Source of the DNA: an uncultured Candidatus Saccharibacteria bacterium | GTDB taxonomy: Bacteria > Patescibacteriota > Minisyncoccia > Phycocordibacterales > UBA9973 | DNA length: 64,000 bases | NCBI GenBank assembly: GCA_964634365.1 | Contig: CAZWJU010000002.1 | Location: forward strand, 32,069-96,068 | Direction: 5' to 3' | Shown here: piece after piece, positions 1-26,325 of the stretch | Layout of the letters: the number at the start of each line of letters is the position of its first letter | Numbering within the stretch: position 1 is the first letter of the stretch | Position numbers and translations under genes: made by a program | Notes under the pieces: model-generated | The model's database searches: none | Seen by the model: only the letters and a program-made list of their open reading frames with translations | Told to the model about the DNA's origin: nothing

Positions 1-1323
1 ATACAAACCAAAGAAAAAGAATACTTGCCATCTGATAACGCTATTATAATCAGTGTAGAAAGTGGAATGTCTAGTCAGTTTAGTAAAGATTTAGCGAAAG
101 CAGTAAAGAGTGGCATTGATAAAAAAATTATTAAAGGGCTAGCTCCAGTATTGGCTCCTCTTGGATACTTAAATACTAAACACGAAGTTCGTGGTGAAAA
201 TTACATAATCAAAGACCCTGAACGATTTGAACTTATTAAGAGAGCGTGGAATATGATGCTAACTGGAGAATATACAATTCCTAAACTTCTAAAAATAATG
301 AATGATGATTGGGGTATGCGTACACGAACCACACGACATCGTGGAGGTGGAAAAATAAATAAAAGTACTATGTATAATATCTTAACCAATATATTTTATA
401 CTGGTCTTTTTATCTACAATGGAGAAGTTGGGAATGGTAAACACGAACCAATGATCACAATGGATGAGTTTGATATTGTTCAAAAGATGTTAGGGAGATA
501 TGGGAAACCAAGAGCCAAGAGTCATATATTTACGTACACTGGCACAATGATATGTGGTGAATGCGGTAGCTCTGTTACAGCTTGTACAAAGACGAAACTA
601 GTAAAAACTAAAAATGAATTAAAGGACTATACATTTTACTATTGTTCACACCGAAAGAAAGGAACAGAAAATTGCTCTCAAAGAGCTTTCATTCCATTGA
701 AAAATATGGAAGATATGATAAAGGAAGAAATAGACAAGTATACGATTTCAGAAAAGTTTAGAGATTGGGCATTAAGAATACTTGCAGAAGAACACTCTGA
801 TGAAGTTCGAGAGAGGGAGCTAATTTATAAAACACAATTAGGTGATATTGAGGCATCTCAAAGAGAGTTAGATAATTTAATAACAATGCGTATGCGTGAT
901 CTCATAAATGATGAACAATACGGTTCAAGGAAAAACGAGTTAACCGAGAAAATTGCAATCTTAAAGCAGAAAATCAATGAAACTGAAAGCCGAGCATTGA
1001 ACTGGTTACAATATACCGAACAAGTATTCAACTTTGCACAAGTAGCAAAAACCAAGTTTGAAGACCCTGAAACTACGATAGAAGATAAGAAAAGTATATT
1101 TACTGCACTTGGTTGGAACTATATAGTAAAAGACCAAAAACTCTTTATTTTACCGAATGATTGGCTAGAGCCAATAGATAAGAAGCGAAAAGCTGTAGAA
1201 AGTGAAATAAATCGGTTGGAACTGGAAAAAACCTTTGCTATAAAAGGACAAAACACCCGTTTAGGGGTGCTTTGTCCAATACTGCGCGACCGACCGGACT
1301 TGAACCGGCAACCTCCCGCGTGA
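1..1323 (+). CDS. Large serine recombinase (integrase-type), 5'-truncated at window edge; recombinase domain, zinc beta-ribbon and coiled-coil present
   Basis: Frame 1 is open from nt 1; the ORF track begins at TTG 25. It has a CX2C...YYCSH...C zinc-ribbon (CGECGSS...YYCSHRKKGTENC) followed by a long heptad-rich coiled-coil, as in C-terminal halves of large serine recombinases. The catalytic Ser domain would lie upstream of the window. The last ~13 codons overlap tRNA-Asp. Confidence 0.7.
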   Translation: MQTKEKEYLPSDNAIIISVESGMSSQFSKDLAKAVKSGIDKKIIKGLAPVLAPLGYLNTKHEVRGENYIIKDPERFELIKRAWNMMLTGEYTIPKLLKIMNDDWGMRTRTTRHRGGGKINKSTMYNILTNIFYTGLFIYNGEVGNGKHEPMITMDEFDIVQKMLGRYGKPRAKSHIFTYTGTMICGECGSSVTACTKTKLVKTKNELKDYTFYYCSHRKKGTENCSQRAFIPLKNMEDMIKEEIDKYTISEKFRDWALRILAEEHSDEVRERELIYKTQLGDIEASQRELDNLITMRMRDLINDEQYGSRKNELTEKIAILKQKINETESRALNWLQYTEQVFNFAQVAKTKFEDPETTIEDKKSIFTALGWNYIVKDQKLFILPNDWLEPIDKKRKAVESEINRLELEKTFAIKGQNTRLGVLCPILRDRPDLNRQPPA

Positions 1324-1358
1324 CAGGCGGGTGCTCTAACCAGTTGAGCTACGATCGC
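1285..1358 (-). tRNA. tRNA-Asp (anticodon GUC)
   Basis: Reverse complement folds as a cloverleaf: acceptor GCGATCG/CGGTCGC (one G-U pair), D-arm AGCTCAACTGGTTAGAGC, anticodon stem CCCGC/GCGGG with loop CTGTCAC, T-arm GCCGGTTCAAGTCCGGT, discriminator G; CCA not encoded. Confidence 0.85.
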
Positions 1359-24208: not shown

Positions 24209-24255
24209 AAAATGCTAGAAAAAACAGCTTTATTATGCTATTCTCATTTCGATAT

Positions 24256-24342
24256 GGAGACGTGTCTGAGTGGTTTAAGGTACCTCCTTGCTAAGGAGGC
24301 GAGCTGTAAAAAGCTCCGTGAGTTCGAATCTCACCGTCTCCG
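24256..24342 (+). tRNA. tRNA-Ser (anticodon GCU), type II with long variable arm
   Basis: GGAGACG...anticodon loop TTGCTAA...variable arm CGAGCTGTAAAAAGCTCCG...T-arm GTGAGTTCGAATCTCAC...CGTCTCC-G. Confidence 0.85.
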
Positions 24343-24362
24343 CCGTTTCCGTTTCAATATAT

Positions 24363-24449
24363 GGAGGATTGGGTGAGTGGTTGAAACCAGCAGTTTACTA
24401 AACTGCCGACCTGTAAAAAGGTCCGTGAGTTCGAATCTCACATCCTCCG
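24363..24449 (+). tRNA. Type II Ser-like tRNA with unusual anticodon loop TTACTAA (apparent anticodon ACU)
   Basis: GGAGGAT acceptor, 3-bp D-stem, anticodon stem GCAGT/ACTGC, long variable arm, T-arm identical to tRNA-Ser(GCU), discriminator G. Confidence 0.6.
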
Positions 24450-24453
24450 CAAA
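24432..24453 (+). repeat. att-like direct repeat copy 1 (tRNA 3' end, cgaatctcacatcctccgcaaa)
   Basis: 22-nt sequence repeated exactly at 24573-24594 and with one deletion at 26275-26293. An inverted 11-mer TGCGGAGGATG lies at 24473-24483. Confidence 0.7.
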
Positions 24454-24572
24454 TTTGAACGTAGTGAAAAACTGCGGAGGATGAACGAGTAAACTGCTTT
24501 GCTCGTGTTGAGATTCGAAAGTTTTTTCCGTACGAGTGAAACGAGGTGGAAAAATACCAGCCGTAGTATCGG

Positions 24573-24594
24573 CGAATCTCACATCCTCCGCAAA
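24573..24594 (+). repeat. att-like direct repeat copy 2 (exact 22-nt duplicate of tRNA 3' end, without the 5' half of the tRNA)
   Basis: Read directly. Confidence 0.7.
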
Positions 24595-24721
24595 GACATT
24601 TTATCATGGGAGTAAATACGTTTTCATACAGTAAATGTGCGACCCGGGTGCATAAATTGTGAACAAAAATACACGAATTATTCGTGTATTTTTGTTTGTA
24701 TCAAAATGGTAAAATATAGTC

Positions 24722-25687
24722 ATGAGAAAAGTCGGATCAGTTAAAAATGAATTACTTCAAAAATCCAGAGAATCTATGCTGGCTGCTGTCCAAATTTTTA
24801 ATAATCCAAATGTGAATTTCAAATCTGAATCATTTATAGTTTTGGCTATTATTTCGTGGACTTATCTACTACATGCTTACTATAGAGAGAAAAAGATTGA
24901 ATATCGTTACTTTGATCAGAAAGAACAAAGAAAGAGGTTTCATTTAACAAAAAATGGGGCTTATAAATATTGGGAATTAGAACGTTGTTTAAATGAAAAG
25001 AAATGTCCCATTGATAAGACTACAGTAGCAAACTTATTATTTCTGATTGGATTAAGACATGAGATTGAACATCAGATGACTACTCGAATTGATGATCTTC
25101 TTAGTGCAAGATTTCAAGCTTGTTGTTTAAACTATAATAAATATCTCAAATCACTTTTTCCACAACAAGATAGTATTGAAAAATACCTCTCTTTTAGTTT
25201 ACAGTTCTCATCTTTAAGTGAAAAACAAGTTGATCAATTAAATGATTATAAGGATTTACCTAAAAACATATCTCTATTTATTGAACAATACGATGAGAGT
25301 TTAACATAGGATGTTTTTAATGATAGTAAATTTTCCTATAGAGTTTTATTTGTTCCTAAAACAGCAAATAGAAAAGGTCAGGCTGACAAAGTAATTGAGT
25401 TTGTTGATCCAAAGTCAGAAATAGCAAAAGGTTTGAGTAAGGAGTATTGGGCTATTAAAGACCGAGAAAGACCAAAGTATCTACCTAGTAGTCTTTGTAA
25501 AGAAATACAAAAGCTTGGATATAAAAAATTTAGCATGCCACAACATACAAAATTATGGCAATCTCAAGATGCAAAAAATCCAACAAAGGGTTTCGGGGTT
25601 CAACTAGAAAAAACATGGTATTGGTATGAAAATTGGTTTGAGTTTGTAAAGAAGCATTGCGAAGATAATAAGGCTATGTACTCTTAA
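24722..25687 (+). pseudogene. DUF3644-like (Abi/HEPN-associated-type) gene split by a single in-frame TAG at 25307-25309
   Basis: The ORFs 24722-25309 and 25433-25687 are in the same frame; translation across the TAG is continuous (..EQYDESLT*DVFNDSKFSYRVLFVPKTANRKG..). N-terminal block MLAAVQIFNNPNVNFKSESFIVLAIISWTYLLHAYY. Confidence 0.55.
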
Positions 25688-26274
25688 TCAGGAAGAGTTA
25701 GTTTTTTATCTTATCTATAGCGATTGTGAATGAGTAGGTATAGCTTATACCTATGATACTTTGTATACTTACTAAGTACATATGTAGCTACCCCTGGCTA
25801 GAGGGATAACTACAAGATTCATCTTAAAGAGGAATCTTGCGAACTTCACGAACACATAGATTTGGATACCTATTTGCATAGGCTTCTGTTACTATTTGTC
25901 CATTATCGACACGACGATAAATTATCTGTGTGCGATATTTACTTTGTTTAGGCATATTAAATATGATTAACTTAGTTCTAATAATTCGACCTTTACGGCT
26001 GTAATTTACAGCCAGTTTTCATCTGTGTTACAAGACCATAAAGGGAGTGCCTTTCGCTAGAGATAGCTGCACATATACTTAGTTGTAAAAGATCTACTTA
26101 ATACTCTTAATATATCAAATTACAATACCTTTTGATACAAAACAGCGTAGGTGTCTCATTTTTTACAAAATACCTTTATTTTCAAATACAGTGACCCCGA
26201 ATCACTTACCTAAATGAGACACTCTAAAAAGTGCCGTAATAGTCCTATCAACATTAAGAGCGTAAGTACTTAAA

Positions 26275-26293
26275 TCACACCTCCGCAAATTTT
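26275..26293 (+). repeat. att-like direct repeat copy 3 (tcacacctccgcaaatttt; 1-nt deletion relative to tRNA 3' end)
   Basis: Read directly; abuts the kinase promoter. Confidence 0.6.
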
Positions 26294-26319
26294 GTAGTAC
26301 ATACCTCACAAGGTATAAT
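26292..26319 (+). promoter_or_regulatory. Promoter TTGTAG - 16 nt - TATAAT; the -10 ends 6 nt before the ATG (probable leaderless mRNA)
   Basis: TATAAT at 26314-26319, ATG at 26326. Confidence 0.45.
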
Positions 26320-26325
26320 GCTTTC

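Follow-up and report, generated by a model that had tools for sequence, protein, structure and literature searches.

Layout of the locus

The window, meaning the whole 64-kb stretch of contig CAZWJU010000002.1 that was analysed, has a G+C content of 37% and comes from a host genome that appears to be low in G+C and Paceibacterota-like. This report concerns an islet of 1.85 kb within it, which lies between a tRNA-Ser(ACU) gene and a partial, displaced copy of the 3' end of that gene. The islet carries a candidate defence gene of the DUF3644 family (PADLOC PDC-S19) whose reading frame is interrupted by a single TAG codon. The features of the locus, in order, are as follows.

24256-24344, plus strand: tRNA-Ser(GCU), a host gene beside the integration hotspot (ARAGORN; Rfam tRNA, 49.9 bits).
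24363-24450, plus strand: tRNA-Ser(ACU), the integration target (ARAGORN; Rfam, 54.5 bits), whose 3' end is repeat copy 1 (24432-24453).
24451-24594, plus strand: the structured element E2. Behind a leader, TTGAACGTAGTGAAA, comes a 5' strand, TGCGGAGGATG, whose partner is the terminal CATCCTCCGCA; the other parts are a hairpin (24485-24505), the strand TGAGATTCG, which pairs with CGAATCTCA, and an inner hairpin.
24595-24651, plus strand: putative degenerate left arm of an island of the large serine recombinase (LSR) type, GACATTTTATCATGGGAGT ... GACCCGGGTGC, which aligns with the conserved arm GACAAYTWAGTATCGGWGTG ... GACCCGAGTAC.
24662-24696, no strand assigned: a perfect hairpin of 17 bp that precedes the cargo gene; with the A and T runs on its flanks, it is terminator-like in either direction.
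24707-24715, plus strand: extended -10 box TGGTAAAAT, read from the sequence, 6 nt before the ATG.
24722-25306, plus strand: N-terminal half of the DUF3644 / PDC-S19 gene, 195 codons, with a complete HEPN domain and RHEIEH at residues 112-117.
25307-25309, plus strand: in-frame TAG, a nonsense mutation at the boundary of two domains.
25310-25687, plus strand: C-terminal half of the gene, 125 codons and a stop codon (25685-25687), its frame intact and conserved and now beyond the reach of translation.
25688-26149, no strand assigned: non-coding stretch at the site where the related loci L089 and L004 carry a recombinase gene; it holds an open reading frame (ORF) of 43 amino acids (aa).
26150-26293, plus strand: right-end module with GTGTCTCATTT, GTGACCCCGAAT and TAATAGTCCTATCAAC, followed by repeat copy 3, the displaced tRNA fragment.

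The repeats were examined against shuffled sequences. The 22-mer CGAATCTCACATCCTCCGCAAA, which runs from the T loop of tRNA-Ser(ACU) through 4 nt beyond the tRNA, occurs as two exact copies in the 64 kb (24432-24453 and 24573-24594), where shuffles lead to an expectation of 0. The exact recurrence reported in a preliminary description of this DNA is therefore non-random. Likewise, CCTCCGCAAATTT has two exact copies (24444-24456 and 26280-26292), with 0.09 expected by chance. The third, partial copy at 26275-26293 consists of TCACA and the CCTCCGCAAATTT region and carries the 1-nt deletion that had been described for it. Two Logan assemblies, SRR12487045 and SRR12486993, matched the window at 100% identity across 6.9 and 4.3 kb, respectively; they may share a project with the window and are possibly not independent of it. 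Both end inside the repeat, at window positions 24422 and 24427, as a true repeat would lead one to expect.

Variable island content at the 3' end of tRNA-Ser(ACU)

The repeats had been interpreted as the footprint of site-specific integration into a tRNA 3' end, and this was supported by comparison with relatives. L196 has a histidine kinase (HK) 86% identical to that of the window, and upstream of the HK gene it carries another island, at least 8 kb long, with SMODS, bacHORMA, S24 peptidase and methylase genes. Homology between L196 and the window starts at 26280, a boundary that adjoins ATCCTCCGCA, and there L196 reads ATCCTCCGCAGATTTTGTA, which is the acceptor 3' strand of tRNA-Ser(ACU). 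It follows that the third repeat was originally the 3' end of the tRNA and has been displaced, and that the content between the repeats is variable. L003 (GCA_964513855.1) carries, in order, tRNA-Ser(GCT), a 150-nt element, an intact DUF3644 gene, a 181-aa ORF, an ATP-grasp gene, HK, a response regulator and RecG; the 150-nt element, between tRNA-Ser and HK, is a copy of E2. The window, L003 and L196 thus have three different contents upstream of a common HK operon, and the segment is not universally conserved among relatives. The outer repeats bound an insertion, and directly upstream of the HK operon the tRNA-Ser(ACU) 3' end serves as a hotspot of site-specific integration. An uninterrupted site would read tRNA-Ser(ACU) followed directly by ATTTTGTAGTAC and HK. 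In L090, the gene lies on a 12.8-kb island between two tRNA-Ser genes.

The island right ends of L003, L116 and L157 share an order of motifs with the window, namely GTGTCTCATTT, GACCCGA, a TAGAATACCCTTACAA-like motif and ...CCGC, within the 140 nt before copy 3. The right end also gave a weak nhmmer match to L116 (E 0.003). These ordered motifs, the L116 match and the L196 boundary together argue for a conserved right-end module. Homology of the right end to L003 was not significant in a local-alignment shuffle test, in which 35 of 300 shuffles scored as high.

L197 has the HK closest to that of the window among the relatives found (91% identical). Here, tRNA-Ser(GCT) and its upstream region (L197 1-90, corresponding to window 24209-24280) are inverted directly before HK, a layout that points to an inversion or rearrangement with its breakpoint at the hotspot.

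Between the gene and the right-end module, the stretch 25688-26149 resembled none of the fetched loci at the DNA or protein level. Of the roughly 600 bp of AT-rich non-coding DNA described earlier, the stretch itself was found, and its AT-richness proved to be mild (G+C of 33-35% for 25688-26293 versus 37% for the window). The 11-bp inverted repeat was located at 26151-26161 / 26212-26222. The 43-aa minus-strand ORF (25824-25955) is also present; it is probably spurious and had no Pfam match. Comparison did not support a derivation of this ORF from the 181-aa protein of L003. An imperfect 34-nt inverted repeat (25771-25804 / 26050-26083, 76% complementary) brackets 245 nt including the 43-aa ORF, and a terminator-like hairpin, GGCTGTAATTTACAGCC with the T-rich tail AGTTTTCATC, lies inside it at 25997-26013. 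Nothing similar to either was present in any fetched locus.

The interrupted gene and its domains

The N-terminal half (24722-25306) matched Pfam DUF3644 with an E-value of 3.1e-59 and 200 bits (cut-off 27.6) over profile positions 1-182 of 183, so that the earlier assignment to a DUF3644-like, HEPN-type candidate defence family stands. DUF3644 was placed in the HEPN superfamily by Anantharaman et al. 2013 (PMC3710099). The Rx4-6H motif, as defined in PMC3710099 and the HEC-08 preprint, is present as R112-H-E-I-E-H117, with R112, E114 and H117 invariant in 54 homologues.

With both halves joined as the query, 4951 homologues were found at E <= 1e-5. Nearly all of the best 120 of these were 319-334 aa long and spanned both halves, and the closest, among the matches listed, were 97, 94 and 88% identical. 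The intact gene normally encodes 321 aa, the homologues that cover both halves having 321-325 aa. P0001, which is 97% identical to the window frame, matched the PADLOC model PDC-S19 with an E-value of 9.5e-162 over model positions 6-322 of 325; the intact ORF that PDC-S19 calls for is absent from the window, where codon 196 is TAG.

An AlphaFold model had a mean pLDDT of 67.5. Residues 5-155 were helical and mostly confident, residues 157-249 unreliable, and residues 250-321 confident, with helices and two short strands. The top Foldseek matches were HEPN proteins (2hsb, HepT and SO_3166), all of them weak (E 0.17-2), and a sequence search of solved structures gave no match.

Judged by sequence, the gene is a HEPN-type single-gene candidate defence gene (PADLOC PDC-S19). 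HEPN domains are generally ribonucleases, and by analogy the intact 321-aa protein would cleave RNA upon infection or plasmid entry. The family spans many bacterial phyla and archaea at 58-88% identity, and the G+C content of the gene is 30% compared with 36-37% in the flanking genes, which together indicate that the gene is horizontally mobile.

The in-frame TAG codon

As previously described, the two halves lie in one frame (24722-25687), of which the TAG at 25307-25309 is the sole interruption. The corresponding codon is GAA in L003, L089 and L004 and GAT in L090, and the residue at this site is Glu or Asp in an alignment of 14 proteins. A single stop codon within an otherwise perfect frame could be an error of sequencing or assembly, a point for which a check had been advised. 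The TAG is also present in SRR12487045 and SRR12486993, and the three assemblies agree base for base. Moreover, TAG differs at two positions from the GAA of the nearest relatives. An error was rated very unlikely, although the assemblies may come from the same project as the window.

To judge the age of the lesion, selection on the two halves was considered. The ratio of nonsynonymous to synonymous substitution rates (dN/dS) was 0.005-0.03 in both halves, with dS saturated, and was 0.026 for the C-terminal half against L003. With changes polarised by L003 and L089, the window lineage had 30 synonymous changes and no replacement ahead of the stop; the codons past it had 21 synonymous changes and 3 replacements, all conservative. 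Replacement counts in intact relatives were similar or higher. Strong constraint on both sides of the stop indicates that the nonsense mutation is very recent. By these rates, the C-terminal half appears to have spent almost none of its history without constraint, and a very young nonsense mutation would be the simplest reading of the TAG.

The truncation might alternatively be adaptive, a free HEPN domain being kept either as a working nuclease under different regulation or as an inactive relic by which toxicity is avoided. The Pfam domain reaches residue 193, with 195 residues encoded before the TAG, the promoter and start codon are intact, and the N-terminal half has accumulated no replacement changes in the window lineage, all of which would suit such a product. 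However, the lack of replacement changes is likewise predicted by a very recent event, the close homologues listed keep the two domains fused (297-398 aa, mostly 319-334 aa), and the truncated product was seen only in the window population. Adaptive truncation was thus considered unlikely.

Decoding of the TAG, by readthrough or by a suppressor encoded elsewhere, would allow the full 321-aa protein to be made. This would explain why the 125 codons past the TAG are intact and their constraint is not relaxed, and a tRNA-Ser with the letters CUA in its anticodon loop lies 860 nt upstream. That tRNA was considered as a suppressor and rejected: although its loop, UUACUAA, holds CUA, it is a regular 7-nt loop with the anticodon ACU, and the tRNA is conserved where the gene copy has no TAG. 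None of the seven tRNA and tmRNA genes of the window has a CUA anticodon. The 65 long ORFs of the window end in TAA (56), TAG (7) or TGA (2), six long ORFs other than the interrupted gene thus using TAG as their stop. The TAG at 25307-25309 is the only one in the 64 kb that lies in frame and has 100 or more open codons to either side. TAG is therefore an ordinary stop here, with no sign of recoding within the window. The best 120 homologues are nearly all of 319-334 aa, and the 195-aa product was found only on the window's two contigs; a stop at this site is accordingly not recurrent. The changes in the window lineage fit a very young lesion equally well, and decoding of the TAG was rated very unlikely. 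Of the two explanations offered in the preliminary description, recent inactivation or readthrough, the former is the better supported by the dN/dS values, the lineage changes and the lone in-frame TAG.

The missing recombinase and its island family

No recombinase ORF or significant remnant was present in 24451-26293, consistent with the earlier statement that no integrase remains, and a search of the islet with an LSR profile found nothing. A tblastn match to the LSR C-terminus was obtained in the expected position (25693-25788, E about 0.3); it was missed by the LSR profile and was not accepted as a remnant.

While tRNA islands usually use tyrosine-type integrases, the relatives of this gene are accompanied by a different enzyme. 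L089, which encodes a 94% identical protein, has tRNA-Ser(TGA), an arm beginning GACAACTTAGTATCGGAGTG..., the gene, and a convergent LSR of 441 aa with Resolvase, Recombinase and zinc-ribbon domains. In L004-L006 (88% identical), the gene and the LSR are adjacent within a larger island, and the arm motif occurs three times, each time after a tRNA-Ser end or a tRNA-like fragment. The missing integrase would, from this association, be a serine recombinase and not one of the tyrosine type. The LSR is absent both from the window and from L003, and homology between these two extends 21-33 nt past the stop codon of the gene. This shared boundary suggests that the loss of the LSR is probably older than the nonsense mutation, the gene then having been kept by selection.

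The arm GACAAYTWAGTATCGGWGTG ... GACCCGAGTAC follows tRNA-Ser ends in L089, L004 and L003 and was found in 82 metagenome loci by a scan for the arm motif, from which a conserved block of about 41 nt, CtCCGCCAAgAnAAcTaAGTATCGGAGTGACCCGAgTaCct, was derived. In nearly all of the 82 loci it stands after a tRNA-Ser gene (GCT, TGA, GGA, CGA or ACT) or a tRNA-3'-like end, and the cargo beyond it is unrelated among the loci. An LSR match was present in 23 of the 82, mostly at 80-85% identity to the L089 LSR; in 21 of these 23, the LSR is encoded by the opposite strand, 0.1-3.3 kb or 11-12 kb downstream of the arm. On the far side of the LSR, conservation continues up to ...GTTGGTAACT. In a hypothetical attachment site of the free element (attP), this right end, ...GTTGGTAACT, would be joined to GACAACTTAGTATCGG...; comparison of the left and right island ends did not fix the crossover point of the LSR. 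The window arm matches the conserved arm at 13 of 20 core positions by eye, lies in the right place and is continuous with the homology to L003 and L089. The convergent LSR that such islands carry beyond the cargo is absent from the islet.

The 17-bp hairpin is conserved in L003, L089, L004 and L198, and was not called by a terminator scan that needs at least 3 G-C pairs. The TGGTAAAAT box is found in the same four loci, and its distance from the ATG suggests that the cargo-gene transcript is probably leaderless. In L198, the module of hairpin and TGGTAAAAT box precedes a different cargo gene. Within 26312-26325, the HK gene has a -10 box, GGTATAAT, that also ends 6 nt before the ATG. Neither gene has a Shine-Dalgarno sequence, and the organism may often make leaderless transcripts.

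In a collection of viral contigs, about a dozen of 33 LSR homologues (L198-L230) were convergent with a nearby tRNA gene. This was tRNA-Ser for LSRs at 58-86% identity, and tRNA-Asp, -Glu, -Trp, -Gln or -Asn for more distant ones. Matches to the arm motif in this collection were chance matches inside genes. A second LSR, 32% identical to that of the cassette described above, runs off the left end of the window (1-1323, plus strand). It is convergent with tRNA-Asp (1284-1358, minus strand), apparently overlapping its 3' end, and is probably part of another LSR island at tRNA-Asp. TGA is hardly used as a stop in the window, one of the 2 TGA-ended ORFs being this LSR frame running into tRNA-Asp.

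E2, a structured element adjoining the tRNA

The inner repeat had been listed among the direct repeats of the tRNA 3' end that delimit the islet. The repeat itself is real (copy 2, 24573-24594), and it forms the 3' end of a conserved element of about 140 nt, E2, instead of a bound of the islet. Ten copies of E2 were found in nine loci, all on the tRNA strand; these include the copies in the window, L003, L126 (two in tandem), L138, L149, L155, L169 (two) and L206. The window copy had an nhmmer E-value of 4e-21 against a profile built from an alignment that included this copy. Where the upstream junction is readable, E2 begins directly after a tRNA-Ser or tRNA-like end, ...CCGCA being followed by GTGAACGTAGTGAAC. 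All copies end with the T loop, T-stem and acceptor 3' strand of the neighbouring tRNA, the match being 22 of 22 in the window and at least 21 identical bases in L138 and L149. The last letters are G-CCA in most copies, with CAA in place of CCA in the window.

The window copy folds at -50.7 kcal/mol (z -4.7). Eight copies, each folded on its own, adopt the same structure: an outer acceptor-like helix, a hairpin of locus-specific sequence, a helix in which T-stem-5'+A+TTCGAA pairs with TTCGAA+T-stem-3', and a long inner hairpin. In the alignment, 91.6% of cells were paired, compared with 77.2% for shuffles and 28-51% for slid controls. Changes on both sides were seen in 21 of 39 pairs against 8.5 expected, and 0 of 500 shuffles reached 21; the structure was derived from the same eight sequences on which it was tested. 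The excess of G-U over A-C pairs (about 17 cells versus 6, by our own tally) indicates a plus-strand structure. The internal 5' strands also covary with the T stem and acceptor stem of the neighbouring tRNA. Neither the window copy (24451-24594) nor that of L138 (124-276) had a tRNA or other Rfam match at E-values up to 1-10, ARAGORN was silent, and the E2 core was absent from the viral-contig collection. An antisense or T-box-like reading of 24468-24520 was discarded, as this region is better explained by the 5' strands of E2 itself, corresponding to the 5' acceptor and T-stem strands of the tRNA.

These data raise the possibility that E2 is a functional RNA gene derived from tRNA-Ser, co-transcribed with the tRNA and evolving in concert with it, in which case the inner repeats would not be an integration scar. 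The ten copies on one strand, the common fold of eight of them, the pairing and two-sided changes above those of shuffles, the G-U excess, the covariation with the neighbouring tRNA stems and the G-CCA end of most copies all favour such a gene. On the other hand, E2 has no 7-nt anticodon loop, D arm or closed T loop and cannot decode, and its CCA reads CAA in the window. In addition, L121 (tRNA and arm) and L138 (tRNA, E2 and the same arm) look like versions without and with E2, the tRNA end being duplicated over 21 nt or more. This pattern and the tandem copies in L126 fit an inserted element, perhaps a miniature integrative one. The RNA gene was therefore entertained as a possibility that is less probable than its converse. 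Such a gene would account for copies 1 and 2 alone and leaves room for an integrated origin of the rest of the islet. Tentatively, E2 could stand for a new class of structured RNA, or of single-stranded DNA site, that derives from tRNA-Ser and has an acceptor-like stem, one long arm and an encoded CCA. Its 3' strand would be held identical to the neighbouring tRNA, with compensatory changes following in the internal strands, and it would serve as a landing pad or as a mimic of tRNA-Ser. As a landing pad it would be self-renewing, recreating the tRNA-end target for the next island; as a mimic it would address tRNA-processing enzymes or seryl-tRNA synthetase.

Two tandem arrangements were also observed. 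L004 (6745-6900) has a tandem tRNA-3'-like fragment and arm, and L126 (736-1035, minus strand) has two E2 copies head to tail. These duplicates suggest repeated insertion at a target that was recreated each time.

Conservation of tRNA-Ser(ACU)

The gene for tRNA-Ser(ACU) recurs in nine other loci (L114, L121, L138, L149, the near-identical L163/L164, L183, L189 and L206), often directly after tRNA-Ser(GCU). In the eight sequences inspected, the UUACUAA loop is invariant and there are compensatory changes in all four stems. To our knowledge, an ACU anticodon, with A at the wobble position, is rare in bacteria. A recoding of AGA to Ser was considered unlikely, since AGA codons of RecG align with Arg in 10 of 12 cases.

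Proposed history of the islet

Taken together, the islet is likely to be a fixed remnant of site-specific insertions at tRNA-Ser(ACU), comprising E2, the tRNA-proximal end of an LSR-type island with the HEPN gene, and a right-end module. On this view, the 1.85 kb that separates the tRNA from 26275-26293 would be a residue of integrated DNA in three layers. The first would be E2, a structured element of 140 nt that duplicates the tRNA end. The second would be the tRNA-proximal end of an LSR-mobilised island, with its degenerate arm, the hairpin, the promoter before the ATG and one cargo gene, and the third the conserved right-end module. As to the order of events, we infer that the recombinase gene was lost, which would have left the islet immobile, since without this gene it cannot move. 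The gene would then have been held under strong purifying selection until, very recently, its Glu codon became TAG at the boundary of the two domains, so that only the HEPN domain would still be made.

Several points weigh against parts of this history. No remnant of a recombinase could be demonstrated inside the islet, and the arm in the window is degenerate, at the 13 of 20 positions given above. Strand exchange by an LSR takes place at a 2-bp core and should leave no direct repeats as long as 13-22 nt. The outer repeat therefore probably stems from a different integration event or enzyme, which suggests that at least one other integration mechanism has acted at the tRNA-Ser(ACU) site. The change from GAA to TAG needs two base changes and would be very recent only if GAA had first become GAG. 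The two assemblies that confirm the TAG may not be independent of the window, and the defence role of the intact protein is, for this subfamily, a prediction made by analogy.

The description of the locus as a decaying defence islet nevertheless proved apt, as it is a recombinase-less remnant with a defence gene cut by a stop codon. It would be a textbook case of a mobile defence island that lost its recombinase and became fixed, its gene then being selected and finally knocked out by a single mutation, and as such would offer a dated snapshot of defence-gene turnover in a reduced genome of the candidate phyla radiation. The decay itself is ordinary. The arm loci point to a family of serine-recombinase islands at tRNA 3' ends in these bacteria, with a shared arm of about 41 nt, a promoter module and interchangeable defence cargo. 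Less ordinary by-products of the analysis are E2, a structured tRNA-like element without an Rfam match, and a tRNA-Ser with the anticodon ACU that is conserved across the group.

Comparison with known systems

E2 may be compared with the tRNA-like domain of tmRNA, with the bacterial Y-RNA-like YrlA and with acceptor/T-arm minihelices, which it would resemble in its acceptor-like helix, its G discriminator, the CCA of most copies and its stacked T-stem-like helix. It differs from these RNAs in that its T-loop sequence is paired, its 3' strand is shared with the neighbouring tRNA, and it has no Rfam model.

The enzyme of the relatives has the domains of the phiC31 / Bxb1 class of LSRs and, as in that class, lies at one end of the element, beside the attachment site. 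Unlike in that class, integration here targets a tRNA gene at its 3' end, and the adjoining tRNA species varies among diverged homologues. Although their contigs are filed as viral, the neighbours sampled around the LSRs of L198 and L206 are defence genes, namely type I and III restriction-modification, ThsB-TIR and helicase genes, and not phage structural genes.

With HEC-08, PDC-S19 and Ishtar, the window gene shares the N-terminal DUF3644 HEPN domain and the Rx4-6H motif. In HEC-08, a DUF3644 protein described in a preprint, mutation of the motif histidine abolished defence; its C-terminal domains are zinc fingers, in which it differs. In Ishtar proteins, which cause plasmid loss, a HEPN domain (DUF4145 or DUF3644) is joined to an uncharacterised C-terminal domain of the alpha/beta type (5-7 strands, 3 helices), and the likeness of the window gene to them is one of description, not of sequence. 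From all three, the window copy differs by its interrupting stop codon.

The closest parallels to the locus as a whole are the tRNA islands catalogued by Islander and the tycheposons of Prochlorococcus. In these, too, insertion takes place at a tRNA 3' end and leaves an intact tRNA on one side and a displaced part on the other, serial insertions are split by partial tRNA copies, the cargo varies, and integrase-less remnants occur. The recombinase tied to the present cargo is an LSR, a type that is in the minority among tycheposons (27 of 937). Further differences are the host, a bacterium of the candidate phyla radiation, the additional E2 between the tRNA and the arm, and the lack of a recombinase in the islet. 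The hallmark of the class is present in the window, where the intact tRNA-Ser(ACU) (copy 1, 24432-24456) stands on one side and the displaced copy 3 (26275-26293), which is kept in L196, on the other.

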